Below are positions 2 to 44,700 of a stretch of 64,000 nt of DNA, in pieces. The translations under genes were made by a program, and so were the position numbers. This DNA comes from Clostridia bacterium (lineage in GTDB: Bacteria; Bacillota; Clostridia; Christensenellales; DTU072), in assembly GCA_045601385.1 (NCBI GenBank), contig JAZRZM010000009.1, forward strand, positions 41,666 to 105,665, written 5' to 3'. The notes below the pieces were generated by a model. The model saw nothing but the letters and a program-made list of their open reading frames with translations. It ran no database searches and was not told where the DNA came from. Each line of letters begins with the position of its first letter. Within the stretch, counting starts at the first letter, position 1.

Positions 2-532
2 TGGCCTTGCGTAGAAAAAATATCGCCCGAGTGGGAAGAGATAAACGCGTCTACCTGGCGCGGTTTTGAAAAAATGTATAAGGACGGAAAAATCCGTGCC
101 ATCGGCGTAAGTAATTTCCAAAAGAAACACCTTGATTCTTTGTTTAAGTATGCCGAAATCAAACCTATGGTAAACCAAATCGAGTTTCATCCGGGATATT
201 GCCAATACGATAACGTACAGTATTCGCAAAGTCTCGGCATGCTCGTCGAAGCATGGAGTCCGCTCGGAAGCGGCGCCGTTTTGCGCGACGCGGCTTTGGA
301 AAGGATCGCCGAAAAGTACAATAAATCCGTCGCGCAACTATGCGTACGGTTTGCTCTGCAACTGGGCGTGCTGCCCTTGCCGAAGTCAACGAACCCCGAT
401 CGGATCGCCTCGAACGCAGACGTGTTCGACTTTGAAATATCGCAGGAAGATATGCAAAGGATTTTGACCTTCCCGCAACTCGGATTCAGTACATATCTGC
501 CGGAGGACGCGCCTGCCGACGCTTTGGTATAA
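2..532 (+). CDS. aldo/keto reductase, 3' part (5' end lies upstream of the window)
   Basis: Frame is open from nt 2 (WPCVEKISPEWEEINASTWRGFEKMYKDGKIRAIGVSNF...). AKR signatures IRAIGVSNF, NQIEFHP, AWSPLG, LPKSTNPDRI. Stop TAA 530-532 overlaps the next ATG by 1 nt. Confidence 0.9.
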   Translation, partial: WPCVEKISPEWEEINASTWRGFEKMYKDGKIRAIGVSNFQKKHLDSLFKYAEIKPMVNQIEFHPGYCQYDNVQYSQSLGMLVEAWSPLGSGAVLRDAALERIAEKYNKSVAQLCVRFALQLGVLPLPKSTNPDRIASNADVFDFEISQEDMQRILTFPQLGFSTYLPEDAPADALV

Positions 533-2703
533 TGAAAAAAACAATCGAGATTGAGCCTTTTGCCTACGGCTATCTGAAAGCCAAGGGAGTCGATAAAGAG
601 ACGCGCATAGCGCGCGCGATTCGTTGCTATGCCGAAAACGTCGATATAAAAATCAACCCCAAAGAGCGTTTTGTCGGCAACACCTGTCGGGAGACGAAAA
701 TGGGCATCCGCTTTTGCTCCAACAGCGGTTTTTTATACGACGCCGGAGGCGCAAAACAGGTGACGAAAGACAATCCGCTACTTGCTTTGCCGCTTTCTTT
801 TCTTCGCCATCGGTGTTTTCCGCATATCGGAGAATTCATCAAGTATTGGCACGAAGACGGTAAGACGCATAAACTTGCGTTATATAAAAATCTTTGGGGC
901 GCGGGGAGTGGTCACGGGAACCCGGACTACAAATTGCTCCTCGATCTCGGCACGAACGGTCTGCGCGAAAAAATCGCCTCTTTCCGACTGAAAAACGCGG
1001 GCAAGGACGCCTTTTACGACGCGCTTGTCATGACGCTCGATTCTTTCGATATTCTGGCACGCAGGTATCGGGAGAAAGCCGAAAAAATGCTCGGAGAGGC
1101 AAAAAACGAAGAGGATAAGAGCGCACTGAAAAGGATCGTCGACGCCTTGGAGAATATACCCCAAAACAAACCGCGTAACTTCTTCGAAGCGTGCCAGGCT
1201 TTTTGGCTCGCCTTTTCTTTTTTGGAAATCGATTCGCCCGGATTGTTTGATTACGCTTTGGGAGAATATTATAAAAACGACGTTTCGGGTGACCGATATG
1301 ACAGTTTAGGGAAACTGTGGGAGTTGTTTCACAAAACGCGCTCGTGGAATTTGTGCGTGGGCGGCAGCGACGAAAACGGCAACGATTTATGCAACGAACT
1401 GACCTACGACGTCCTGAAAGTCGCCGCCGAAAAAAAATACAACACGCCGAATATCACGATGCGGTTTCATAAAAACTCGCCCGAAAAGGCGTGGGACAAA
1501 GCGATCGAAACGCTTTCTACGGGAATCGGCATGCCGGCTATATATAACGACGAGTGCGTGTGCGTCGCCTTGGAAAGGCTGGGCGTTACGCCGAAAGACA
1601 GTAGGCTGTATTGTATGAACGGATGCAACCAAATCGATATTTTCGGCAAGTCGCACATGGGGCTTGAAGACGGCGAAATCTGTGTGGCAAAGGCTCTTGA
1701 ATACACACTCTTTCACGGCAGATGCCGTTTTTTGAACCGTAAACTCGGGCTCGACTTGGGCGATCCGTCCTCTTTTAAGACGTTCGACGACTTTCTGGCG
1801 GCGTTTTACAAGGAGATCGATTATATGCTCGAAAAGGTGACGTCGGTCTCCAATGCGGCGCAGAAAATACATGCCGAATACAGTCCGAATCCGTGGCGGT
1901 CGTGTCTCATCGAAGGATGCGTCGAAAAAGGCGTGGACTATAAGCGCGGCGGTCCGATTTACGGACACGGACAGATCCTGACGGAGGCTTTGCCCGATAC
2001 GGTCGATTCTCTTGCCGCGATCAAACACTTTGTGTACGATGAAAAAAAATATACTTTGGTGCAACTCGTCGCCGCTTTGAAACGGAATTTTGTCGGGTGC
2101 CAAAAACTCTATAAAGACTTTTCCGGGTACCTTAAATTCGGAAACGATATACCCGAAGTCGATAAAATTTACAAGGAAGTGACCGAATACATATACGCTT
2201 CGCTCCAAACGTTTTCCACCTTCCGCGGCGGAAAATTCGGCGGCGGATGCAGTACGTACAACCGTGCCGCCGAATACGGCAGAAAACTCGGCGCGCTCCC
2301 GAACGGCAAAAAGAAAGGGGAGACGTTGCTTGCCGACAGTATCGGCGCCGTACCCGGTTGCGACAAAAAAGGTCCGACGGCGCTTCTTAACTCGGTGCTT
2401 TCCGCCGATCAGACGCTTGCTACCAGCGGAAACGTCTTGCAGATGAAGTTCGATAAAAAACAGTTTGGGACGGAAACGGGAAGGGAAGCCTTCAAGGCGC
2501 TTGCGAAAACGTATTTTTCGCAGGGCGGACAGACTTTGCAAATCAACGTCGTATCCAAAGAAGAATTGCTCGACGCAAAGGCTCACCCCGAGCGTCACGG
2601 CGATCTGATCGTGCGCGTGGGCGGTTTCAGCGAGTATTTTACAAGGCTCGAACCGGCTTTGCAGGATAATATCATTCAACGTTCGGAGAACGGTTTGCTG
2701 TAA
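532..2703 (+). CDS. glycyl radical enzyme, PFL2/diol-dehydratase-like clade (723 aa), substrate unknown
   Basis: C-terminal glycyl-radical fingerprint LIVRVGGFSEYF (Gly codon 2623-2625). Putative thiyl loop DSRLYCMNGCNQID (Cys codon 1624-1626). PFL2-type blocks FFEACQAFWL, GIGMPAIYNDE, DSLAAIKHFV, KFGNDIPEVD, GPTALLNSV, LQINVV. The activase gene follows after 2 nt. Confidence 0.9.
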   Translation: MKKTIEIEPFAYGYLKAKGVDKETRIARAIRCYAENVDIKINPKERFVGNTCRETKMGIRFCSNSGFLYDAGGAKQVTKDNPLLALPLSFLRHRCFPHIGEFIKYWHEDGKTHKLALYKNLWGAGSGHGNPDYKLLLDLGTNGLREKIASFRLKNAGKDAFYDALVMTLDSFDILARRYREKAEKMLGEAKNEEDKSALKRIVDALENIPQNKPRNFFEACQAFWLAFSFLEIDSPGLFDYALGEYYKNDVSGDRYDSLGKLWELFHKTRSWNLCVGGSDENGNDLCNELTYDVLKVAAEKKYNTPNITMRFHKNSPEKAWDKAIETLSTGIGMPAIYNDECVCVALERLGVTPKDSRLYCMNGCNQIDIFGKSHMGLEDGEICVAKALEYTLFHGRCRFLNRKLGLDLGDPSSFKTFDDFLAAFYKEIDYMLEKVTSVSNAAQKIHAEYSPNPWRSCLIEGCVEKGVDYKRGGPIYGHGQILTEALPDTVDSLAAIKHFVYDEKKYTLVQLVAALKRNFVGCQKLYKDFSGYLKFGNDIPEVDKIYKEVTEYIYASLQTFSTFRGGKFGGGCSTYNRAAEYGRKLGALPNGKKKGETLLADSIGAVPGCDKKGPTALLNSVLSADQTLATSGNVLQMKFDKKQFGTETGREAFKALAKTYFSQGGQTLQINVVSKEELLDAKAHPERHGDLIVRVGGFSEYFTRLEPALQDNIIQRSENGLL

Positions 2704-2705
2704 AA

Positions 2706-3554
2706 ATGGACGGTATCGTTTTTGACATTCAACGTTTTTCCATTCATGACGGTCCGGGGATTCGTTCGACCGTTTTTCTGAAAGGCTGCTCTTTGCGCTG
2801 TTTATGGTGTCATAATCCCGAATCTCAACTTTCGGCGCCCCAAATTGCCGTTTTTAAGCACAAGTGCGTCGGTTGCGGCGCGTGCGTGAAGATATGTGAA
2901 ATAGCCTTTTTGCATAACTGCGACGGATGTGGAAAATGCGCAGAGGTCTGTCCTGTCGGCGCGCGCGAAGTCATAGGCGAAAAAAAGACCGTCGAAGAAG
3001 TGTTTGATGAAGTTGTCCGCGACAAAGCGTACTACCGCACATCGGGCGGAGGCGTGACCGTATCGGGCGGAGAGCCGCTTTTGCAGGTGGAGTTTGTCGC
3101 CGCGCTTTTTTCGGAATGCAAGCGTGAAGGTATATCCACCGCTGTCGAGACGGCGGGGAACGTGCCGTGGGAAAAGATAGAGACCGTTTTGCCGACGTGC
3201 GACCTGTTTTTGTACGACGTCAAGTGCATGGACGAAGAAAAACATCGTCGGTTGACGGGGGCGAGCAACCGCCTGATTCTTGACAACGCCGAGCGGTTGA
3301 AAAAAACGGGTAAACGGATATTGTTCCGTATGCCCGTCGTGCCGGGGTACAACGACGACGAGGTGGAAAAAACGGCGGCTTTCTGCGGCGATTTTCCGTT
3401 GGAGATTCTTGCTTATCACGACACGGCGCGAAGTAAGTACGCCGCGATCGGCAGGGAGTATCCGATAAATGCGACCGCGTTGTCGCAGGACGAGATGACG
3501 CGTCTCGCAAAAAAAACGGGCGCGAGTTATAAGCCGACGGGGCTGAACGCCTGA
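2706..3554 (+). CDS. glycyl-radical-enzyme activating protein (radical SAM)
   Basis: FSIHDGPGIR followed by CSLRCLWCHNPES (CxxxCxxC). Two ferredoxin-type motifs, CVGCGACVKIC and CDGCGKCAEVCP. GGEPLL motif. Lies immediately downstream of the GRE. Confidence 0.92.
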   Translation: MDGIVFDIQRFSIHDGPGIRSTVFLKGCSLRCLWCHNPESQLSAPQIAVFKHKCVGCGACVKICEIAFLHNCDGCGKCAEVCPVGAREVIGEKKTVEEVFDEVVRDKAYYRTSGGGVTVSGGEPLLQVEFVAALFSECKREGISTAVETAGNVPWEKIETVLPTCDLFLYDVKCMDEEKHRRLTGASNRLILDNAERLKKTGKRILFRMPVVPGYNDDEVEKTAAFCGDFPLEILAYHDTARSKYAAIGREYPINATALSQDEMTRLAKKTGASYKPTGLNA

Positions 3555-6531: not shown

Positions 6532-9500
6532 ATGGAAACGACAAAAGAATTTTTGAAACAACACGTCGAAAAAAGTCGACGGCAACTCCGATCGAAAGAT
6601 TTTATTCAGTTGAGCAAAAACTCGTTATCCTTGACCGGGAAAAGCCTGCCGTCCTTTTTATCTTCTCTTGCGGGACGGGGTAAAAAGGTATTCGAACTTG
6701 TCGTGCCGGACGAAGGAAAAACGGGGAAGCGGCTCTGCGGAGACATGGTCACGGCGGCGGACGTTTTCCGCACGAGCGAGAATATCGTCTGGGACGGTGC
6801 CGATATACGCTTTCTGACGAAAGACGGGATTGCCGTCAGCGGTTATCAATACGACTATATCGCGCAAAACGGGTTGGAGGAGAATCAGATTTTTGCCAAA
6901 TCCAACCGACCGGAGACGGACGTGCCGACGGTATGGAAAAACATCGTAAGACGCGCCGACGACGCGAGAAAAGACAAAATCAAAGAAATACTGTACATTA
7001 CCGTCGGTTCGATCGAATGGACGACGAAAGAGGGGAAAAAAGCGATTTCGCCCCTGTTTGCCTGTTCGGTGCGAGAGGAGAAGAATAACGGCGAACGCTT
7101 GCGTTTTCGTGTGACGGGGGACTGTTTTCGCATAAACGGAATCGCGGGCAGAGCGATAAAAGAGCAGACCGGTATCGACGTATTCGAGGGCGTTTCTCCC
7201 GAAGTCGGGTTCGGCGCGCTGCTTGAAGAATCGGAAAAGATAAAAGCCAAGGCGTCGCGGATTGCGAATATACGGTTCCGCGACGACGACATAAACGTTT
7301 GTATCCTCGACTCGGCAAACGAGACCGTTTGCCAAGCGGTGGAGAAGATGGCGGACGAACTCGCCGCGTCGGAAATGGTGCGTGTTCTTTCGGGAGAGCG
7401 TCCGAACCCCTTTTACGACGATACGGGCATCGAAGGGATCTATCCTCTGCTTGCCGACGACAGCCAGCGCGACGTGATCAGAAAGGCGATAGCCGGGTGC
7501 AGCGTCAACGTCAACGCGCCTGCCGGCACGGGCAAATCGCAGACGATGGTCAATATCGCCGCCAACATGGCGGTTATGGGCAAGAGCGCGTGCGTCATGA
7601 GCGAAAAGGCTGCCGCGAACGAAGTCTTTTTGAAATACGCCGCAAGTATCGGACTCGACACATACTGCCTGTCAATCGAAAATACGATGACCGTCTCGGA
7701 TATTGTGTCGCAGATTATCCGTATCGTCAATGCGCCGAGATATTACGTCAACGCAACGGCGGCGCGCGAAACGCTTGCCGACAAACTCGACGTCGATCGG
7801 GAACTGGACGAGTTCGGAAACGGCGTCTATCGGGAAGTGCCCGAACTCGGTTGTTCGGTGTACGACCTGATCGGAGAAGCGATTGCGTTTCCGCCGCCCG
7901 AAAACCTCGATTCGATTCGGGCGTCCGGAGAGAATTACTCTTTAGTAAAGAGTAAAATCAGAAATTTCCGCGACGGCGTTATGCGATATACGCCCGAAAA
8001 AGACTTTTTCCGCTACGTAAAAGACGGGACTTCGGGGCAAGAAGAAGTGGACGAAATGCTGCGGCAAGCCGTGGAAGAACTGCTCGGAATCGGCGTCGAT
8101 CCGATCGCTTTTGCGCGCGATAACAAAATCGAAGACCGCATTTGCGAACGGCTTTCGGCGGCGGTCGCTTTTTCATTGGCGTCGGTATATATGAAAAATC
8201 GGAAACTGAACAGGTACGGCAATATTTTGCTGTGTTCTCTTTATTCGAGACTTGTTTCGGTGTACGACAGAATGACGGCGCTTTACAGAGCGTTCATGTT
8301 ACAGGAAATTTCGGCGCGCGTCGCGCATAGCGTGCGCGGCAATCCGTTCGTCGCGTTGCTGGATAAACTGAAAACGAATCAGCATATCCGCCCGATCGAT
8401 TTGTTCGAGCAATATGGGAAAGAGATACTCCGTTTGTGCCCCATTATCGTCAGTACGCCGGGTATCGCCGTCAATTATATCCTCAATTCGATGAATACTT
8501 TCGACGTGTTGATGATAGACGAGGCGTCGCAGGTGCCCGTGACGGGCGTTTTGCCTTTTCTTGCCGGGAAAAAGCAGTTGATTACTTTCGGCGACGCCAT
8601 GCAACTTGGCGTGAGCGATTATTTTGCGCAAAGCGATACCGACGGACGGGACGAAGAGGGCACGTTCGACATCGACAAGACGGATAAGTCGATTTTGCAC
8701 GTCGTCTCGGGCAAACTTTCCACCTGTAACCTTTTGTTTCATTTCCGTTCAAAATGCTATTCGCTGCTCGTCGTGTCGAACGAAACGTGCTACGACGGTA
8801 TTCTGAATCTGATACCGGACGTATACACCGACAAAGACAATCTGCCCGATTATCTCGGGTATGAACTGTGCGTGAGCGACGACGACTCCGCGACAAACAA
8901 CGCCGGAATCAACCATGTCGAAGCGGAAGCGATCGCAAAGAGAGTCTGTAAAATAAAAGACGAAACGCCCGAAAAAACGATCGGTATCATCGCGTTTAAC
9001 GAAAAGCAGCAGAATCATATTCTCGACCTTTTGGAGACGAGACATACGGAAGGTTTGCTTTGTTGCGATCTTAATCGCGACGACGAGATATGGATTCGTT
9101 CGATCGAAACGGCGCAGGGCAAGGAAGCCGACGTCGTCCTGATCAGCATCGGGCATACCGCTCGCCGTGCGGACGGGAAAATACGGCAGGCGATCTCCGA
9201 TATTCATAAGCCGGGCGGCGTCAATAAACTGAATGTTCTTTTTACGCGCGCCCGTGAAAAAAATATCGTGTTTTTGTCGTTCGATTATAAGGATTTACGG
9301 TTTTCCGATAATCAGGGACTGGCGCGTTTGTACCGGTATCTCAACTATGCCGATACCGGCGAAACGGACGAAAGAAGCGAAAAGAAGAAGCGCACGGACG
9401 ACAAACTGAACGAAAACTGGGAAAAGATCCTGGAATCGTCCGAGGTATATACGCCGAAAGCCAAGGTGGGCAACAACGTTCTGCTTGTCGATATGGCGCT

Positions 9501-10194
9501 TGTCGATAAAGATAAAACGGACAAGTACTGCCTCGGCATGCTCTTTGCGCCCGAAAAACTGACGCCGAACACGCTGTATACAAAAATAACCGTGCTCGAA
9601 CGCGCCGGTTGGAAACTCGTCCCCGTTTCGCCGGTACAATTTATCGGGGAAAGAAAAGAAATCATCCGGAACGCGGAGCAGTATGTTCTACGTGAAACAC
9701 TGCCGTTCTGCGGACAGGATGAAAAAGAAACTTATCTGGTCGAGACCTGCCCGACGAGCCCGATTTTGCCCGCCGAGGTGATGTGTGAAAAAAGCATCCT
9801 GTGCGAAGAGGAACAATTGCCCGAAAAGAAAGCGTTTGGTTACGAAGACGTCCTTTCGATCGACTTTGAAAGGGCGTACCGAAAGGTTATTCCCGATTCG
9901 ATTCTTTTGGCGGACGATTCCGTCCTGATGAACTATGTGAAAAACAATAACCCGGAAGCGACGCTTGTTTTTTTGACGCGCCGACTGCCGAAACTGCTCT
10001 GCGACGACTTTTATCCGCAGATCGTGCAAAGGGTGACGGGTTTGTATCGTCAAGGTTTGAAAGCGGCGGGGTATCTTCTGGCGCAACTTCTTCGCGTGCG
10101 GGAAGACGACAACGGAAACGCCGACGTGATTGAAAAACTGTTGAACGAGGCGGCGGAAACGGGCGTCGGGGAAACGGAGGGAAAAAATGATTAA
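6532..10194 (+). CDS. superfamily-1 (Upf1/DNA2-like, AAA_11/AAA_12-type) helicase, 1220 aa, with N-terminal DUF4011-like region and C-terminal REase-like remnant
   Basis: Walker A NAPAGTGKSQT (7516-7539). Walker B MIDEASQV (8512-8535). FGDAMQL (motif III). IETAQGKEADVVLIS (motif V). NKLNVLFTRAREK (motif VI). RBS AAGGAAGG lies upstream of the ATG. The 3' end overlaps the kinase gene by 8 nt. Confidence 0.88.
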   Translation: METTKEFLKQHVEKSRRQLRSKDFIQLSKNSLSLTGKSLPSFLSSLAGRGKKVFELVVPDEGKTGKRLCGDMVTAADVFRTSENIVWDGADIRFLTKDGIAVSGYQYDYIAQNGLEENQIFAKSNRPETDVPTVWKNIVRRADDARKDKIKEILYITVGSIEWTTKEGKKAISPLFACSVREEKNNGERLRFRVTGDCFRINGIAGRAIKEQTGIDVFEGVSPEVGFGALLEESEKIKAKASRIANIRFRDDDINVCILDSANETVCQAVEKMADELAASEMVRVLSGERPNPFYDDTGIEGIYPLLADDSQRDVIRKAIAGCSVNVNAPAGTGKSQTMVNIAANMAVMGKSACVMSEKAAANEVFLKYAASIGLDTYCLSIENTMTVSDIVSQIIRIVNAPRYYVNATAARETLADKLDVDRELDEFGNGVYREVPELGCSVYDLIGEAIAFPPPENLDSIRASGENYSLVKSKIRNFRDGVMRYTPEKDFFRYVKDGTSGQEEVDEMLRQAVEELLGIGVDPIAFARDNKIEDRICERLSAAVAFSLASVYMKNRKLNRYGNILLCSLYSRLVSVYDRMTALYRAFMLQEISARVAHSVRGNPFVALLDKLKTNQHIRPIDLFEQYGKEILRLCPIIVSTPGIAVNYILNSMNTFDVLMIDEASQVPVTGVLPFLAGKKQLITFGDAMQLGVSDYFAQSDTDGRDEEGTFDIDKTDKSILHVVSGKLSTCNLLFHFRSKCYSLLVVSNETCYDGILNLIPDVYTDKDNLPDYLGYELCVSDDDSATNNAGINHVEAEAIAKRVCKIKDETPEKTIGIIAFNEKQQNHILDLLETRHTEGLLCCDLNRDDEIWIRSIETAQGKEADVVLISIGHTARRADGKIRQAISDIHKPGGVNKLNVLFTRAREKNIVFLSFDYKDLRFSDNQGLARLYRYLNYADTGETDERSEKKKRTDDKLNENWEKILESSEVYTPKAKVGNNVLLVDMALVDKDKTDKYCLGMLFAPEKLTPNTLYTKITVLERAGWKLVPVSPVQFIGERKEIIRNAEQYVLRETLPFCGQDEKETYLVETCPTSPILPAEVMCEKSILCEEEQLPEKKAFGYEDVLSIDFERAYRKVIPDSILLADDSVLMNYVKNNNPEATLVFLTRRLPKLLCDDFYPQIVQRVTGLYRQGLKAAGYLLAQLLRVREDDNGNADVIEKLLNEAAETGVGETEGKND

Positions 10195-11479
10195 GAAAGG
10201 CACAACGGTACAATCGCTTGATAAAAAGCACGAATATGTCGTCGATTCCGTTATCAGTGCGGGAACGGCGCAGGGCGACATATACAAAGTCTTCTGCGGC
10301 GAAGACGCGTACGCGATGAAAATTTTTCACAACGGGGAAAAGAAAAAACTGCTTAAACAATTCGATTTATTGATCGGACGGGGCAAAATCTGCCCGGCGT
10401 ACGTCTATCCGAAAGAGATTGTGGAGGCGGAGGGAAAAGTCGGATACGTAATGGAATACGTGGACGGCGAAGCGTTCGTCAATTCCGCGGCGCTGTATAA
10501 CGGCGTCAAGCAAAAGGGCAGAAACGTCGAACTGCCGTTTGAGAAAAAACTGACGATATTATATAATATCGTGGACGCTTTCCGTCAACTGTACGAAGCC
10601 GATCTGTGCGTGGCGGATATAAAATTCGACAATATAAAAGTAAACCTTGCCACGGGAGATATTAAAATTCTGGACGTGGACACCATTGTGTACAAAGGTT
10701 CGAAAACTTTTGTCAGCGGCACGTTCGGCTTTATGCCGCCGCTTACGATGACGGGCAAGGAGACGCCGTCGAAATACAACGACTCGTATGCGCTCGCCGT
10801 CATCATTTTTATGACGCTTCTCGGTTCTCATCCGCTTATCGGGCGGCAGGCGGAAATAAACGGGAACGCAACGAACGAGTATCTTCTCGGCGAACACCCC
10901 GTTTATATATTCCATCCGTCGGACAGCACGAACCGTCCCGTCGGCGCGAACGAATACGGACAAAACCAGCAAAGAGCCATCGACCGTATGAAAAAATATC
11001 CGCCTTATTTCGGAAAGGCGATGGAAAGGACCTTTGTCGACGGCTTGTTCGAGAAAGAAAAAAGGACGACGCCGCGCGAGTGGGGAGAGATCATCGAAAA
11101 ACTCTACGAAGACAGTTTTATCTGTCTTAACTGCGGCGAAGAAGTCTTCTTTTCGAGCGGTCGGAAGAGGTGCGACGTATGCGGCGCGGAGATTGTCATG
11201 CCCGTTTGTTTGCGCTGCGAAAGCCATACCGTGCCGCTGTATAACGGCGGTATCGTCCGTTCAAAAGCGATTTTCGGCGGCGACGCGGACGAAGAGGTGT
11301 TCCGCGTAAAAGTTTCGCCGTACGACGGAAAATACGGCTTGTTGAACTGTTCGCCGGACGTATGCATGTTAAAACTGAAAACGATGAGTAAAGAATTCGG
11401 GCAAGGGGAAATCATACCGATTTTTCTCGACGGAACCATCTTGATGGGGAAACACGAAATAAAATTTTTGGGGGAATAA
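10187..11479 (+). CDS. Ser/Thr protein kinase-like protein with C-terminal zinc ribbon and beta-rich tail
   Basis: Kinase subdomains YAMKIF (VAIK Lys), MEYVDG hinge, catalytic loop VADIKFDN, ILDVD (DFG position), GTFGFMPP, SYALAVIIFMTLLGSHP. This is followed by CLNC-x12-CDVC-x8-CLRC (11123-11218). Confidence 0.85.
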   Translation: MIKKGTTVQSLDKKHEYVVDSVISAGTAQGDIYKVFCGEDAYAMKIFHNGEKKKLLKQFDLLIGRGKICPAYVYPKEIVEAEGKVGYVMEYVDGEAFVNSAALYNGVKQKGRNVELPFEKKLTILYNIVDAFRQLYEADLCVADIKFDNIKVNLATGDIKILDVDTIVYKGSKTFVSGTFGFMPPLTMTGKETPSKYNDSYALAVIIFMTLLGSHPLIGRQAEINGNATNEYLLGEHPVYIFHPSDSTNRPVGANEYGQNQQRAIDRMKKYPPYFGKAMERTFVDGLFEKEKRTTPREWGEIIEKLYEDSFICLNCGEEVFFSSGRKRCDVCGAEIVMPVCLRCESHTVPLYNGGIVRSKAIFGGDADEEVFRVKVSPYDGKYGLLNCSPDVCMLKLKTMSKEFGQGEIIPIFLDGTILMGKHEIKFLGE

Positions 11480-11482
11480 ACT

Positions 11483-12484
11483 ATGAAAGAATTTTTACCG
11501 CACGGCATCGCGCTGAATCCCGTTGAAAGGGAAATCGCAAACGACAAAAAACCGTTGTATCTTATCGAAATTCTGGATACGTCGTCGAGCATGAACGAGT
11601 GTTCGGAAATCGTGACGGAAACGGGAGAAAAAAAGAAAATCAGCAAGATAGAACAATTGAACCAAGGTATAAAAAAGGTTTTGCAGAGCCTGAAAAAGTT
11701 TGAGGACGAAAACGTCATGTACAAAGTTTACTTGCAGATTATCGAACTGAATTCTTACGGAAAGGCGCTGTTTCCCGAATTTGTACCGATCGCAAGGAAC
11801 GTGGAAGAAATCCGTTTTGAGGCGTACGGCTGTACCTGTCTGGAAAACTCCGTCAACACGTTGAAAAGATACATAAATCGCAAGTATATGCCCGGCTACA
11901 ACAGAGCCGTCAGCGTTATTCTGATGAGCGACGGACACCCGACGGACGGAAACGGATTCGAAACGACCAGGGCGGCGTACGAGACAATTATTGACGAGTG
12001 GAACGAGCATTTGACAAAGTCGGACTATAAACGCAACGTGGAGACGTACGCGATAGCCGTAGGCGACAATGCGGATGAAGAGATGCTGCGCTATTTTGCG
12101 GGGGACGAAAGTCACTTTTTCCGCGTCGAAGAAAGCGAGTCGCTCGCCGACAAACTCGATTTTGCGACGCGTATGTCGCTCGCGCACCATACGACGATGA
12201 ATCCGGAAACGGAGGAAGAAAACGACGACGAATGGTTTGGGGGTGACGCGGACGAATGTGAAGAAAACGGCACGGAATACGAAATCGATATTCTGAAATG
12301 CTTAAAAGGCGACTGCCGTCAATGTAAAGAAACGTGCGAAATGGGGGCGATAACGGTAGAAAACGGCATTCCGTCCGTTGACGCCGACTTTTGCAACGGA
12401 TGCGGAAAATGCGCGTCGGTGTGCCCGACGGGCGCGATCGGGCCGAAGTCCGATTCCGATATCGACGGTATTTTGGGGTGGTAA
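11483..12484 (+). CDS. von Willebrand factor A (TerY-like) protein fused to a 4Fe-4S ferredoxin-type domain
   Basis: MIDAS residues DTSSS (11576-11590), MSDGHPTDG, AVGDNAD. Acidic linker. C-terminal CRQCKETC ... CNGCGKCASVCPTGAI (12392 onward). Starts 3 nt after the kinase stop. Confidence 0.85.
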   Translation: MKEFLPHGIALNPVEREIANDKKPLYLIEILDTSSSMNECSEIVTETGEKKKISKIEQLNQGIKKVLQSLKKFEDENVMYKVYLQIIELNSYGKALFPEFVPIARNVEEIRFEAYGCTCLENSVNTLKRYINRKYMPGYNRAVSVILMSDGHPTDGNGFETTRAAYETIIDEWNEHLTKSDYKRNVETYAIAVGDNADEEMLRYFAGDESHFFRVEESESLADKLDFATRMSLAHHTTMNPETEEENDDEWFGGDADECEENGTEYEIDILKCLKGDCRQCKETCEMGAITVENGIPSVDADFCNGCGKCASVCPTGAIGPKSDSDIDGILGW

Positions 12485-13422
12485 TGAAAACGGTCGGCAG
12501 AGTGACGGTCGGATACGGAAAGAGGCTTGCGGGCAAGGTTTGCGAGGACGCGAAAGGTATTTTTCGGTATGCCGATTATACGGTGCTTGTCGTGGCGGAC
12601 GGGCACGGGGATAAAAAATGCCGTTTCGCGTCCGTCGGATCGGTCCTTGCCGCGCAAGCCGTAAAAAGCGCGCTGAACTTGCTGAAAAAAGAATGTCCGC
12701 ATTCCGACCGTATTTGTACGTTTTTGAATGAAAACCGCGAAAAACTGTTCCATACCGTCGTTATTTGTTGGATAAAAGCGGTTTTGGAAGACTATATCGC
12801 GCGAACGGCGGATAAACGGTTTGAAGCGGAAAAAGAGAGACTTTTTTCCTATCTCGATCATGCGTTTTCGCCGCGAAAAGGATGTTTTTCGCCCGACGAA
12901 ATACGACAAATCGCCGAGGAAAGAAAAAGGTGCGAGGACGGAATATACGCCGTGACGGTTTTGTACGGCACGACCTTAAAAGCCGCCGTCGTGAGCGACG
13001 AAGCGGTTTTTTGCTTCGGCATAGGCGACGGAGACGTCGTTGCCGTCGGCGAGGAAAAAGTCGAGTGGTGTTTGCCGAGGAGCGAACAGTTTTCGACGGA
13101 GACGAGATCGCTTTGCTGTCGGTTTGAAAATGTGGACCGCTTTTTTTCGGCGCGCCTTATGCGACGCATAAACAAGTCGGCGCAAAAGGATTTTACCGAG
13201 GAGACGTTTGATTTTCGTATGCTTTTTGTTTCGACGGACGGACTGCGGAATTCCTTTTCCGACGACGAAAGTTTTTGTCGGAAACTGCGCGAAATCGCCG
13301 ACGTATGCGGGAAAAAGGGGGTTGAATATTTTTCCAAAAAATCGCAAAGGTGGATTGAAAATCTGACGAAAAACAGCGTTTTTCGGGACGATATCGCTTT
13401 CGTATGCGCAATGAACGAATAA
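12484..13422 (+). CDS. PP2C-family Ser/Thr protein phosphatase
   Basis: PP2C metal-binding blocks VVADGHGD, GTTL...GIGDGDVV, VSTDGLRNSF, RDDIAFVCA. Start chosen at the ATG overlapping the vWA stop (TAATG at 12482-12486). The upstream part of the ORF-track frame (12391-12483) lies inside the vWA gene. Confidence 0.85.
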   Translation: MKTVGRVTVGYGKRLAGKVCEDAKGIFRYADYTVLVVADGHGDKKCRFASVGSVLAAQAVKSALNLLKKECPHSDRICTFLNENREKLFHTVVICWIKAVLEDYIARTADKRFEAEKERLFSYLDHAFSPRKGCFSPDEIRQIAEERKRCEDGIYAVTVLYGTTLKAAVVSDEAVFCFGIGDGDVVAVGEEKVEWCLPRSEQFSTETRSLCCRFENVDRFFSARLMRRINKSAQKDFTEETFDFRMLFVSTDGLRNSFSDDESFCRKLREIADVCGKKGVEYFSKKSQRWIENLTKNSVFRDDIAFVCAMNE

Positions 13423-38782: not shown

Positions 38783-41700
38783 TTATGCTACGGCGACGTT
38801 ATACGAGACGGCAAGAGAAATCGTATAGGTAACGGACGCGATATTGACGCGGTCGGTTATCGTCGCGATAATCGCGGTCGAACCGGAGTTCTGCGCGGTA
38901 ACGAGTCCGCTCGCATTAACGGCGGCGCAGGCGACGGAACTGCTTTGATAAGCGATCGACGTCGGCGCGTAGGCTTCGCCGTCCTTTTCAAAAGAAAGGG
39001 TATTGCGCGTCGTCGAACCGCGTGAAAGGACGACGGACGGATTCTCGAAGAAGGCGTAGATAAAGGTCGCGCCGTCGAGGGCGTCGTTGCCCGCTCCGAA
39101 CCGTGCTATGTCGTACGAGTCGCTGCCGACAATATATACGTAAAGAAGAGCGTCACAGCCCGAAAGAGCGTTTGCACCGACCGAGGTTACGCCGGACGAC
39201 ATACCGAGGAGTCGCAGATTTTCGCATCCGAAAAATGCCGATTGTCCGATCGTTTTTATGCTTGCGGGCAGGCTGACTACGGTCAGTTTAGCACAACCGT
39301 AGAACGCGCCTTCGGGCAGGGCGGTAAGACCGGTCGAGAAGGTCGCTTCTTCCAGAGCCGACGCGTTTTGGAAAGCGTACGAGCCAAGAGAAGTCAGCGT
39401 CGAGGGGAAAGCCACTCTCGTGACGGACGACTCGGCAAAAGCGTGTGTGTCGACGGACGTAAGCGTGGACGGCAGTTCGAGCAGACGAATCGAAGCGCGC
39501 ATAAAGGCGTACGCGCCGATTTTCGTAATGCCGGCGGCAAGAGATACCGAGGTCACGTAGGGGGCGTCCTTGGCAAGTTGGGTATACGTAAGGTATGCCG
39601 GGACAGTGGCAAGCGCGTCGAATCCGAACGCGATGCCGCTTTGTTTATCGCCCGAGCGGAAAAAGATCTCCGAGGAAGCGTTCAGCGTGATAAAGGCTTT
39701 CCAGGTTACCTTTTTCAGAGAAGTAAGGTACCCGAACGCTTTTGTCCCGATACTTGCCGAAGTAAAGGACGGCACCGACAGTTCGGTGACGGCGGTACAA
39801 CCGTAAAAGGCTTTTGTGCCGATCGACGTCAAAGACGACGGCAGGGTGACATACGTAAGCGCGACGCAGTCGGAGAACGCGCCCGTACCGACGGTCTTTA
39901 CTTTCGATCCGAACGTGACGACGGATAGATCCGCGCAGGAAAGGAAGGCGTAGTCGCCGACGGTGACGAGGTTCGACGGCAAGGAGATTTCGGGCAGAGA
40001 CGACATAGCGAAAGCGTATTTTCCGATAGAGGTCTGCGCCGAGCCGAACGTGACGCGCGACAGATTTTCGCACTGATAAAAGGCGTAGTCCGATACCGCG
40101 GCGACATTGTTTGAGAAAGTGATGTTTTTCAGAACGTAGTTTTTGGCGAAAGCGTATTTGTAGAGCGAATAGGTCGGATGGACTCTGTTGTATTCGCTCG
40201 GCATAACCGCGCTGCTTTCCTGCCCGATATAGCCGAGCAGATAGTATTCGCCGCCGACGTACATAAGCAGGAATTTTTTGTCGATTTCGTCGTCGAACTT
40301 CAATTCCGAAGCGTCCGTCGTGACGATACGCAAAGCGTATTTTGCCACGCTTCCGTAGTTGTTTTGTCCCATATTGAGCACGACCGAACTTATGTTGCGG
40401 ACTTCGACGAGTTTTTCGCAACCGACAAAGCAGTCCTCTTCGATTTCGCGTTTTCTTATTTTGCGGTACACTTTTTCGCCGTCGAAAGTATACGTCACCG
40501 AATTGACCGTCAGCGTGTGCGCCGCATGATTGATCGAGCCGACGTTTTTGAGAATCGTTCCGTCGTTTTCGTAAAAGTATTCGATTCCGCCGAGCGTGAT
40601 TTTTTGCAGTCCTTCGTCGATGACGCCGGCGTTCTGCAAGTTTTCGTCATACAGCATTCCGCCGTTGTACGAATAGTTGTTTTCGTTCAGAACGATCGAT
40701 TTTTCGACGGTATTGACCGAGCCGACCGCCGTTTTTATTTCGGTGCCGGACAGATAATAATCGACGTCGGAGACAGAAAAACGGTTTTCCGCCAAGAAAA
40801 TATCGCCGACGTACATATCGGTATAGATGCCCGTTTCGTCGCCGCTTTGACCGTACGAATAAGTAACGCTTCCTACGGTGAAACTCTTTTCGGCGACGTC
40901 GATGGCGCCGTGTTCGCGGTCGATATAGATTCCGCCGTCTTTCAGATAGTATTCTTCGTCGGCTGTGAGGATATCGTTATCGACGTCGATAAACGCGCCG
41001 TCTACGACGTAGTCGTGCGTTTTAGAAACGGACGAGTAGACTTTGTTTTGGTTGAAATACAGTTTCGTTTCGTCGATAAAGACGACGCCCGATTTCGGGG
41101 AAACGGTGATTTCGTCGGCGAGCGTGGCAAGGTCGCTCGACGTGTACACTTCGCCGCTTTCGTTGTAATAGTAGTAGGTCGAATAGACGCTGTACGTGTT
41201 GTTTTTTAGGCTGATCCGAACGCTCGACAAAATGTTTTTGAAATCCCTGTCGGCGTAAACGTAGCCGAATTTGTCGAAGTAATAAACGCTTCCGACGCTG
41301 ACTTTAACCGTCCCTTCCTGCGAAACGACGGCGCCGTTTACCTTGCTTATTTCGTTCATTTTGCGGTCGGTAAATACTTCGTATTTATCGTTATAATAAT
41401 AGGTCGCGAAAGGCACGTTGTACGCGCCGTCCGTCGTCGATACGCTCATACCGGCAATAAGGCTTGTTTTGCCGCTGTCCGAGTATACTTTTCCGGCGTC
41501 GTCGAAGTAGTACGTCGTACCGCCGTGCGTAAAGGAGTACCCGGTGCGGTTAAACGAGTTTGTCGTCAGAGCGTGCTTGTCCTGGTCGGCGTAGACGAGA
41601 TCGTTCGTATAGTAAAAACGGTCGTAAACGGTGCAAGTCTTTGCCGTCGTGTCGAACGAAACGTGTTTTTCCTGCGTCGTCAGGGCGTTCGACGTGTAAA

Positions 41701-44700
41701 CGGTTCCGTCCGTCACGTAAGAAAGCGAACGCATGGTCGGGAAGACGAAGTAGCCGTTCGAGCGGCACACGTATGCGCCCGCGTATTCGTCGGACATCGC
41801 CGGGTCTGTATAAACGGGCGCTTTGGCAAGCGCGCTGTTGAAGTAGTACGTCGTGCCGTTCATCATAAGGGTGGACGGCGTGGCGATCACGTTTATTTTG
41901 TATTTGTCGGCGTCGAGCAGCGCGTCGGGCGTTTTTGCATAACTTGTATATACGTTGTTGCCGTTGAAGAAATAAACGACGTTGATCGGGAGAGTGGCGT
42001 CGCGCGCGATACCCATGTTTTCCACGGGAGAACCCGTCAGCGCTTCGTTCGTATAGTATTTTCCGTCCTGTCCCGCGAAGTAGCGCGTCGTATGGACGGA
42101 ATAGGTCATCTCGTTTACGTCGATTTCGGTGCCGCCGACGCGGTTTGTCAAAGCGGCGTCACGGTAGACAAAGCCGTTATCGGTGTAATAATAAGTGACG
42201 TCCGTCGGGAAAGCGATCGTTTTCAGTGTCGTATTGATGCCCGACGAAGAGTCGATACGCGTCGTCGTGCCGTACGAATAGATATAACCGTTCGTCGCGT
42301 CGTAAGAATAACTGTTTCCGTTCAGAATGAAAACGCGGTTGGTCAGGTCGATAGAGGCGTCTTCGACGGGTTTGTATTTCGTTTGGTCGTAATAGATTTT
42401 TCCGTCGGCGCCGTAATAATACAGAGGATGTTCGGTAATCGTCAGCGTCTTGGATACGCGCATACCGTCGATAAGGGCGGTTTTTGCCGAATCGGAATAA
42501 ACTTTTCCGTCGCCGTCGTAATAATACGTTTTGCCGAGCACGTTAAACGACGTGGAAATCGCGTTCATCAGACTGCCCGAGTAGTTGTTTCTTCTTTCGC
42601 TGTCGGCAAACATACTGCCCGTACTGTCAAAGTAATAAGATAACGCTTCGGGCAGGTAAACGCTTTTTACTTTCTTGAAGTCGTCGTTAAAGTCGATATA
42701 CGCGCCGACCAAGGGCTTTTCGCCGATAAAGACGGCGCATTTTTCGCCGTAATAGTAGGTCGTGCCGTCGATTGCGTAGGAATTATCGGCTTCGCTAACG
42801 GAAGCGTTTTCGACGACGAGCGTTTTCGTCGAATTACCGTAAACGGTCGCGCCGTCGTAATAATAGGTGTACATCATCGGCATAACGATCGATTTTGCCG
42901 ACGTATCGATGGACGCGCCGACATAGGGAGACTGATTTTCCCGATCGAAGTAGACTGCCGAGCCGTTATAGTAATACGACGCCCCGCCGGGTACGACGAT
43001 GAAAGACCGCGAAGCGGTGTTGATGCTCGTGTTCAGAATTCTGTTGTGCAGACCGACGTCGGAATAAATGGCTCCGGCGGTGTTGTAATAGTAAGTAACG
43101 GTCCCGGCATAGGTAAATTTCTTTTCGGACGGATCGAAACAGACGTCTTCGACCTGAACCGTTTTTTCCGCGTTTGCGAATACGGCGCGTTTGTTTTTAT
43201 CGAAAGTGTAGACCTTTTGTCCGATTTCGATGACGCCGTCCGTTACCGATATCGAAGAGGCGGGGAGGGCGTAAGGCGAATCGAGCGAGGGATCGGCGTA
43301 CAAAGTACCGTCGTCGTAATAATAATCGACGTCGTTTAAGGTGAACGTGAGGTCGCTCTTGTTGATCGTGCCCACGTTGTCCGGTCCGTAAATCGTGCCG
43401 CTGTCGCCGTAATAATAGGTCGTACTGCCGAGCGTAAGGCTTCGCGCGGATACGTCGATCGTGCCCTCATTACCGTTCAGTCCGCTGCCGAGGAGAACGG
43501 TAACAAGGTTAATGCAGTTCCGAAAAGCGCCCACGCCGAGAGAGGCGACGGCGTTACCGACGGTCAAAGAATACATAAGGTAACACTCGGCAAAGGCGTA
43601 TTCGCCGACCGTTTTCGTGCCGCCCGGCAGGACCGTTTCGATAAGCCCCGTATGGAAAAAGGCGTAACGGGGGATCTCTTTGAGGGCGGAAGAAAATTCT
43701 ACCGAGCGCAGACCGGTGCAATTATAGAAAGCGTATTCGCCGACCGAACGCAGTTCTCCGCCGACGGTAAGGGCGGTCGAAGAGCAGTTGAAGAAAGCGT
43801 ATTTTCCGACGTTTTCGACCGAAGAAGAAAGAGTAACCGTTTGCAAAGAAGAACATTCGTAGAAAGCGTATTCGGGTATGGCGTCGCAGGAAATGACGTT
43901 GACGGCGGTAAGGGACGGGGGAAGAACGAGCGCGTTTTGCTCATAACCGTCCGCGCCGAACAAGAACCCGAGATAGCCTTCTTCGTTTTTCGATTTGCCG
44001 ACGACGGGCAAGGTAAGATCGACCAGTTTCGTGCAGGTGTCCAGAAGATGCGCGCCCATTGTGCGCACGCTGTCGGGGAAGGTCAGCGAAGTGAGATCGA
44101 CGCATTTTTCAAAGGCTTTGTCGGCGATTACCACGGTGTTTGCCTGTACCGACAGTTTCGTCACAGCCGTTTCTTTCGTCGGAGCGACTTCGATCAGATA
44201 GTATTTTTCGCCGTCATCGTCCCTTGTGGGCAGGTATAACGAGACGTTGTTCCAGTTCTTTTTATCGTTGTAAAAAGCGGTGTTATAAAAAGCCTTTTCG
44301 CCGACAGAACGGACGGAAAGGGACATATCGATCGTTTCGAGGGTGGCGCAGTCGGCAAAGGCGTTCTTTCCGATGGATTCGACGGAGGACGGAATGACCA
44401 GGTTTACCATTTGCGGATAGTAAGAACTCATCGCGAAAGCGAAGTCTCCGACGGCGTAGGAAGTCACTTTTTTGCCGTTACAATCAAACGTAAGGGGGAG
44501 AGAAATCTCCGTCCGCGACGTCTGTTTGTAGCCGATAAGATAACCTTTTTCGTCGTAGTAAGCATAGACAAAGTCGTCGTCCGAGTCGATCACGGTCGGC
44601 GCGGAAAAATCGTCGGTATGTACGACGGTGGCGGAAAAATCGGCGGAGCCGTCGTTGGGACGGTACACTTCGAAGATATGGGTGTTTTTCAGAATATCGT

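Follow-up and report, generated by a model that had tools for sequence, protein, structure and literature searches.

The gene described here, vWA-Fer4, lies at 11483..12484 on the forward strand of a 64,000-nucleotide stretch of DNA from a Clostridia bacterium (Christensenellales; contig JAZRZM010000009.1, positions 41,666 to 105,665), which is referred to below as the window. Its 333-residue product (the coordinates include the stop codon) consists of four parts: a von Willebrand factor A (vWA) domain with a complete metal ion-dependent adhesion site (MIDAS), an acidic disordered linker, an eight-Cys ferredoxin-type (Fer4) domain, and a short acidic tail that ends in Trp. The gene sits between those for a Ser/Thr kinase and a PP2C-family phosphatase, an arrangement designated the TerY-P triad. 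That triad is known already, as is its pairing with a UPF1-like helicase. What is new is the insertion of a ferredoxin domain in the scaffold protein and, among gut Clostridia, an operon that compactly joins helicase and triad (with or without a transglutaminase-like gene). The identity and architecture of the vWA-Fer4 protein are near certain, and comparison with its homologs presents the fusion as real, conserved, previously unannotated and mechanistically suggestive. The translation of the open reading frame (ORF) was exactly as quoted in a first-pass annotation of this DNA, in which the fusion was noted as one not known to be described; our literature searches likewise found no paper on a vWA-Fer4 fusion.

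The vWA domain occupies residues ~20-240 (11540..12202, forward strand). Pfam VWA matched residues 105-222 with a score of 32.2 bits (cut-off 23.8), and the five MIDAS residues (D32, S34, S36, T118 and D150) were invariant in an alignment of 30 homologs with 40-56% identity, which bears out the complete MIDAS reported in the first-pass annotation. An AlphaFold2 model built on 30 homologs had a mean pLDDT (predicted local distance difference test) score of 84.6, with values above 90 across the vWA domain. A Foldseek search of the N-terminal part against the PDB returned vWA domains exclusively (best E 1.5e-10), including those of ITIH1, LapA (vWFA), TFIIH Ssl1/p44 and ArnB. The linker that follows, ETEEENDDEWFGGDADECEENGTEYE (residues 241-266; 12203..12280, forward strand), is as acidic as had been claimed, with Asp or Glu at 14 of its 26 positions (54%), and residues 245-262 were predicted to be disordered (pLDDT <50). 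Among the aligned homologs the linker ranged from ~20 to ~110 residues and was acidic in all.

The 2x[4Fe-4S] ferredoxin-type domain comprises residues ~267-321 (12281..12445, forward strand). Its eight Cys residues form motif I (C273-x4-C278-x2-C281-x3-C285) and the canonical motif II (C304-x2-C307-x2-C310-x3-C314-P). Both Cys motifs of the first-pass annotation are therefore present, but the description of the first as shorter did not stand; its first spacing is longer, Cx4C and not CxxC. Residues 268-320 scored above the curated Pfam cut-offs for Fer4 (37.2 against 21.1 bits) and Fer4_6 (39.2 against 25 bits), and the dicluster model Fer4_7 was matched at 28.0 bits with a cut-off of 27. When the C-terminal 69 residues were compared with PDB sequences by phmmer, the C-terminal dicluster domain of HdrA was recovered (8rvv_A, residues 581-625; E 5.5e-13), together with the solved dicluster domains of the polyferredoxin MvhB and of RnfB. 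RnfB-like proteins were also the closest sequence relatives of the domain in a word-indexed protein search, with 49-64% identity over ~40 residues. In the AlphaFold2 model, residues 265-325 (pLDDT 73-87) had the strand and helix order of a clostridial ferredoxin, beta-alpha-beta-beta-alpha-beta. DSSP assigned strands at 266-268, 290-293, 296-299 and 319-321 and helices at 279-284 and 309-313, giving (beta-alpha-beta)x2. Taken with the model, the sequence matches indicate that the Fer4 domain probably binds two [4Fe-4S] clusters.

The eight Cys residues are a property of the family and not of the window protein alone. They were invariant in the 30-member alignment and were kept in 85 of 112 family clusters; a lack of Cys conservation in orthologs, which the first-pass annotation had named as a result that would count against an iron-sulfur domain, was not seen. 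Among these 85 clusters motif II was CxxCxxCxxxC throughout. For motif I, 44 clusters had Cx4Cx2Cx3C and 39 had Cx4Cx2Cx4C, with Pro next in 38 of the latter, and one cluster had the canonical form, so that the Cx4C spacing was common to 83 of the 85 Fer4-bearing clusters; the form Cx4Cx2Cx4CP was typical of members with long linkers. The gap between the two motifs was 18 residues in all 45 clusters that matched a strict pattern, mostly short-linker members and the window's own group, and Pro followed the last Cys in 43 of these. A chance fusion or an annotation artefact was rejected because the Cys residues are conserved in ~85 clusters and the protein is encoded by a single uninterrupted ORF.

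The family is rare and belongs to uncultured gut Clostridia. A word-indexed search of 5.8 billion proteins recovered 99 full-length relatives at E <= 5e-48, nearly all of them metagenomic and nameless; the two exceptions were entered as 'hypothetical protein' and 'uncharacterized protein YegL'. When 1.84 billion cluster representatives (50% identity) were searched exhaustively with a profile, just 19 reached E <= 1e-30, which indicates rarity. In a scan of one genome per species of GTDB, close relatives were found in ~10 genomes, which were Clostridia, Eubacteriales and Oscillospiraceae metagenome-assembled genomes (MAGs) and one MAG labelled Bacilli. A search of a plasmid collection gave no match to the vWA-Fer4 protein, and the sole match in a phage collection was a 42-residue Fer4 segment in one human-gut phage record. 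These two collections gave no evidence that the protein is carried on plasmids or phages. An index of contigs contained no exact copy of the protein sequence, and gene context was compared through homologs.

The same GTDB scan recovered 70 loci with vWA proteins 21-30% identical to the window vWA domain. In most of these, tblastn placed a homolog of the window kinase just upstream of the vWA gene and a homolog of the window PP2C just downstream, in the order kinase-vWA-PP2C; the kinase was detected in most loci (E 1e-12 to 1e-39) and the PP2C in ~60%. Since the kinase, the vWA protein and the PP2C each have homologs in other triads, the sequence comparisons support the assignment of the vWA-Fer4 protein as the TerY-like vWA (MIDAS) subunit of a kinase/vWA/PP2C phosphorylation triad, in agreement with the first-pass annotation, which had placed it in a TerY-type triad; the ~70 triads share its gene order. 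TerY-P consists of a TerY-like vWA protein, a Ser/Thr kinase and a PP2C phosphatase (Anantharaman, Iyer & Aravind 2012 and Gao et al. 2020, as summarised in PMC11090510). The kinases of the type found in CoCoNuT systems carry a C-terminal zinc ribbon (PMC11090510), and those of the type described by Gao et al. are given a C-terminal OB fold in the same summary. TerY-P-like modules are reported both to act alone against phages and to accompany the UPF1-like helicases of CoCoNuT systems (PMC11090510).

To set the window protein against its canonical counterparts, 68 distinct triad vWA proteins were taken from these loci (L019-L088; the vWA ORF lies at ~position 8000 in each), and ORFs from the same loci served as controls. 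The canonical proteins had a median length of 250 residues (range 229-295), and 66 carried DxSxS. The first-pass annotation had put stand-alone triad vWA proteins at ~200 residues; this figure was too low, and the proteins have an acidic tail of their own. Its view that the fusion is unusual held, since none of the 68 contained a CxxCxxCxxxC motif.

The triad and a superfamily 1 (SF1) UPF1-like helicase form one translationally coupled four-gene operon, in the order helicase, kinase, vWA-Fer4, PP2C. The helicase and kinase genes overlap by 8 nucleotides, 3 nucleotides separate kinase from vWA-Fer4, and vWA-Fer4 and PP2C overlap by 1 nucleotide (TAATG). The ATG of the PP2C gene thus overlaps the TAA stop codon of vWA-Fer4, and homology to other loci starts at that Met. 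The PP2C-family Ser/Thr phosphatase (12484..13422, forward strand) has 312 residues and matched Pfam PP2C_2 (1e-22). The Ser/Thr protein kinase (10187..11479, forward strand; 430 residues) matched Pfam Pkinase (2.8e-11) and DZR, and consists of a kinase domain (residues 1-308), a four-Cys zinc ribbon (310-350; DZR match 313-347) and a small all-beta domain (356-428). Residues K45, D144, N149 and D163 and the ribbon residues C313, C316, C329 and C332 were invariant in 34 homologs. The AlphaFold2 model of the kinase (pLDDT 90.4) led by Foldseek to eukaryotic-type kinases. The all-beta domain of ~75 residues (11255-11476) was confidently modelled after the zinc ribbon and had no Pfam match; it is a possible counterpart of the OB fold described in other TerY-P kinases.

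The helicase (6532..10194, forward strand; 1220 residues) has an N-terminal DUF4011 and matched Pfam DUF4011, AAA_11 and AAA_12, with Walker A (GTGKS) and Walker B (DEAS) intact. Among NCBIfam models its core matched ProA (5e-87; 292.7 bits, cut-off 1500) and Hhe (3e-67; 227 bits, cut-off 2000), and in PADLOC it matched PDC-S37 (3.8e-94). The C-terminal ~190 residues (~1030-1220; 9620-10194) gave no domain match other than a weak one to Ank_5 (E 0.038), and no nuclease domain was detected in the window helicase, unlike in DUF4011 helicases of the Hhe type. The helicase is particular to the close family. In all close loci with upstream sequence, the gene immediately upstream of the kinase encoded a helicase homolog; of the 70 canonical triad loci, L085 alone had one, which matched in part and lay on the opposite strand.

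A fifth gene belongs to the cassette in other hosts. It encodes a transglutaminase-core (Cys-protease-like) protein of ~220-250 residues, was present in 15 of 18 close loci, and lies either 3' of PP2C or 5' of the helicase (examples are L004 12542-13216, L006 11965-12684, L011 9991-10662, L001 4386-5081 and L016 ~2167-2838). A transglutaminase-like gene was also seen near three canonical triads (L066, L082 and L086). The conserved genes of the cassette across loci were those for the helicase, kinase, PP2C and transglutaminase-like protein, with no conserved oxidoreductase among them. Relatives that lack the Fer4 domain occupied the same helicase-kinase-vWA-PP2C-transglutaminase context.

The vWA-Fer4 protein ends in DSDIDGILGW, part of an acidic and aromatic C-terminal tail, GPKSDSDIDGILGW (12446..12481, forward strand), with Trp last, which aligns with the family motif LDxLFDGLDE. 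Tails of this kind are a general feature of the canonical triad vWA proteins. The last residue was Trp in 47 of the 68 and Phe in 10, compared with 7.6% terminal Trp in control ORFs; an aromatic residue was found among the last four in 67 (32% of control ORFs), and at least three of the last twelve residues were acidic in 57. In these sequences the acidic, Trp- or Phe-ended tail looks like a conserved docking peptide. No description of a near-universal terminal Trp/Phe peptide in TerY-P scaffolds was found in the literature searched, in which the 2012 TerY-P source paper was not included.

Family members without a Fer4 domain kept a long acidic linker and ended in LDxLFDGLDE or DDILNFKY. Because both they and the canonical proteins carry acidic/aromatic ends, the alignments identify the Fer4 domain as a lineage-specific insertion between the vWA domain and an older acidic/aromatic C-terminal peptide. 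The history of this insertion was assessed with a neighbour-joining (distance) tree of the vWA domain alone. The short-linker clade was wholly Fer4-bearing, the long-linker clade was Fer4-bearing with at least four Fer4-less lineages interspersed, and the basal and sister lineages lacked the domain. When the shared Cx4C spacing and the fixed 18-residue gap are added to this tree, the most parsimonious history is a single gain of the domain with several later losses. The domain is conserved where present, and since close relatives lost it several times within the same operon, it is accessory to the cassette, not essential. The acidic linker of the window protein also contains DDEWF (residues 247-251; 12221-12235), which is like the DDEW termini found in canonical triad vWA proteins. 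It could be a relic of the ancestral C-terminus, and it is not conserved in other family members.

The cassette is best interpreted as a defence-type module against phages or mobile elements. This interpretation draws on the resemblance of the helicase to ProA, Hhe and PDC-S37, on the published defence role of TerY-P-like modules, and on a patchy distribution in which the genomic neighbourhoods of the cassette differ from host to host. We lean, by a little, towards a defence-type cassette in which a cluster-binding Fer4 domain supplies a modulatory input. The role of effector or sensor would fall to the helicase, and a complex assembled on the vWA scaffold would have its phosphorylation state set by the kinase and PP2C. 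The Fer4 domain, held on a flexible tether just before the terminal peptide, would modulate this system without being one of its core components. Whether its clusters are present, and in which redox state, would depend on oxygen, oxidants or iron supply and would affect the conformation of the peptide-tethering segment. Such a change could alter how the peptide or the MIDAS face engages a partner (kinase, phosphatase or helicase), and the phospho-switch would thereby become responsive to oxidants, oxygen or iron supply. A sensing role of this general kind is possible, and we propose it tentatively from the sequence features. The specific form, in which the domain is a redox, oxygen or iron gate on an immune phospho-switch and cluster loss or oxidation releases or moves the C-terminal peptide and so shifts kinase/PP2C control of the UPF1-like helicase, is speculative and by our estimate rather unlikely.

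Several observations weigh against a defence cassette with a Fer4 input. Motif I is non-canonical in its first spacing, and in the window protein no Pro follows its fourth Cys. Repeated loss of the Fer4 domain shows that the cassette works without it, and any input from the domain is optional because the cassette persists after such losses. No redox enzyme or iron-related gene was linked to the cassette. The transglutaminase-like gene was not found anywhere in the 64-kb window (best tblastn E = 0.38), so the window copy of the cassette could be incomplete. No PADLOC model named for TerY-P matched the triad proteins at E <= 0.1, in a library whose TerY-P content is unconfirmed; at this threshold the kinase matched PD-T4-6 alone, and the vWA protein and PP2C matched nothing relevant. 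Finally, what the vWA scaffold of TerY-P assembles is itself conjecture.

Of the alternatives, a structural or docking module survives best, and we consider it unlikely but worth serious consideration. In such a module the clusters, or another metal, would merely hold a compact fold that offers an extra surface for contact with protein or nucleic acid, for example with the helicase, and nothing would be sensed. Large complexes contain many ferredoxin-like domains with a structural or wiring role, as the matches to HdrA, RnfB and MvhB illustrate. There are precedents among vWA proteins for C-terminal Cys-metal modules in contact with helicases, and TFIIH Ssl1/p44 is among the fold matches of the window protein. 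The Fer4 domain also always co-occurred with the helicase-linked form of the triad. However, the same helicase is retained by relatives that lack Fer4, which means that pairing with it does not require the domain, and one may argue that an oxygen-labile cubane is a costly way to build a contact surface.

A zinc module, in which the eight Cys residues bind Zn as two Cys4 sites instead of iron-sulfur clusters, is improbable. The irregular motif I would suit it, and the TFIIH vWA proteins carry Cys4 zinc modules. Against this, ferredoxin hidden Markov models were matched above their curated cut-offs, the dicluster model included, and the protein aligned residue by residue with a solved dicluster domain. 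The hallmarks of a ferredoxin (CxxCxxCxxxCP, the GxC pattern, the 18-residue gap and the (beta-alpha-beta)x2 order) were also kept.

Electron transfer, in which the domain would shuttle electrons to or from a redox enzyme within the system, is very improbable: its nearest sequence relatives are electron-transfer modules (RnfB-like proteins, HdrA and polyferredoxin), but the cassette has no conserved oxidoreductase and the domain is dispensable in sister lineages. Equally far-fetched is a bait, an exposed Fer4 domain that imitates a host ferredoxin under attack by a phage factor so that the kinase/phosphatase switch reads the attack; the points in its favour are circumstantial, namely that the domain is accessory, tethered at the surface and quickly gained and lost within what is probably a defence cassette, and that the one human-gut phage record has a similar segment, but that match covers 42 residues of a very common domain.

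The genes that flank the cassette are ordinary chromosomal genes of an anaerobe. Upstream, at 532-3554, are a pyruvate formate-lyase-like glycyl-radical enzyme (723 residues) and its radical S-adenosylmethionine activase (282 residues, with ferredoxin-type motifs), followed by TrkA and TrkH. The enzyme and activase lie 3 kb upstream of the cassette, and their presence identifies the host as an anaerobe. Downstream are a GTP-dependent phosphoenolpyruvate carboxykinase (PEPCK), a GNAT-like protein, an oxidoreductase and a rhamnosidase. Among named sequences, the relatives nearest to the PEPCK came from Clostridia, Eubacteriales and Christensenellales MAGs. In a comparison for recent insertion, synteny was not conserved at the PEPCK loci of the nearest relatives (83% and 81% identity). 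No anomaly in guanine-cytosine content was seen across the cassette, and scans for promoters and terminators gave results at chance level. Elsewhere in the window, a single ORF of 2809 residues occupies 38783-47212 on the minus strand.

Some of the related loci have neighbours of their own. In the metagenome loci L001-L003 (1-5081 and 12045-17810) the cassette lies between a block of JAB, ThiF (E1-like) and unknown genes and a set of large proteins, one of which had matches to DUF5700 and Colicin_E5, and this neighbourhood resembles a defence island. In the MAG labelled Bacilli, an extra ORF of 234 residues lies between the vWA-Fer4 and PP2C genes (L010, 9257-9961). It contains a weak ferredoxin-like Cys region, with scores for Fer4 (19.1 bits) and LdpA_Fe-S-bd (18.4 bits) that were both below cut-off.

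TerY-P triads are found widely, with a validated role as anti-phage modules, and form part of CoCoNuT systems. The probable iron-sulfur domain stands right before the conserved terminal peptide of the scaffold and provides an experimental handle: since natural forms of the same operon either have or lack the domain, the state of the clusters is testable as an input. The idea of a terminal Trp/Phe docking peptide is perhaps more general and applicable to any TerY-P system. The family itself is rare, confined to uncultured gut anaerobes and known here from sequence and models. If the Fer4 domain does act as a gate, TerY-P systems would gain their first identified physiological input, and the terminal Trp peptide of all TerY-P scaffolds would be a regulated docking element.

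Compared with known systems, the window cassette is closest to TerY-P, with which it shares three homologous proteins in the same gene order, a complete MIDAS, the zinc ribbon of the kinase and an acidic, aromatic-ended vWA tail. It differs in the ferredoxin-type domain placed before the terminal peptide, for which the canonical set offers no counterpart, and in an operon that includes a UPF1-like/DUF4011 helicase; its vWA domain is also just 21-30% identical to the canonical ones. CoCoNuT systems of Types II and III-A combine the UPF1-like helicase CnuH, the HEPN protein CnuE and the McrBC-like CnuBC with TerY-P (PMC11090510). The cassette resembles them in that a TerY-P triad is encoded with a UPF1-like SF1 helicase. 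However, no gene for an McrB-like GTPase, McrC or a HEPN protein was found near the window cassette, which is flanked by TrkA/TrkH and PEPCK, and none was seen in the close loci; identification of the cassette as CoCoNuT was rejected because these McrBC-like and HEPN genes are absent. The helicases differ as well, since the window helicase begins with DUF4011 and CnuH with an SmpB-like OB fold and an RNase-toxin-like region. Ferredoxin, iron-sulfur and transglutaminase go unmentioned in the CoCoNuT paper (PMC11090510).

The Fer4 domain is similar to the clostridial 2x[4Fe-4S] domains of HdrA (8rvv_A), RnfB (7zc6_B) and MvhB (9sw6_G) in its eight Cys residues, canonical motif II, 18-residue gap and beta-alpha-beta repeats. 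It differs from them in the motif I of the family, Cx4Cx2Cx3C or Cx4Cx2Cx4CP, and in its host protein, which is a signalling scaffold and not a redox enzyme. In TFIIH, p44/Ssl1 carries zinc modules and contacts XPD. The TFIIH subunits p44/Ssl1 and p34/Tfb4 resemble the window protein in a vWA fold followed by Cys-rich metal modules and in having a helicase partner, and they were recovered as fold matches (7o4i_6 and 4wfq). They are eukaryotic, bind zinc and not iron-sulfur clusters, and are not part of a kinase/PP2C triad; the likeness is an analogy only, with no homology claimed beyond the vWA fold. The helicase is related to the DUF4011 anti-phage helicases Hhe and ProA and to the PADLOC candidate PDC-S37, in which an N-terminal DUF4011 and an SF1 core match the window protein. 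It is 600-700 residues shorter, only its core aligns with Hhe and ProA, and its scores are far below their cut-offs. The window-type helicase is further set apart from Hhe, ProA and PDC-S37 by the kinase/vWA/PP2C triad, which always follows it.

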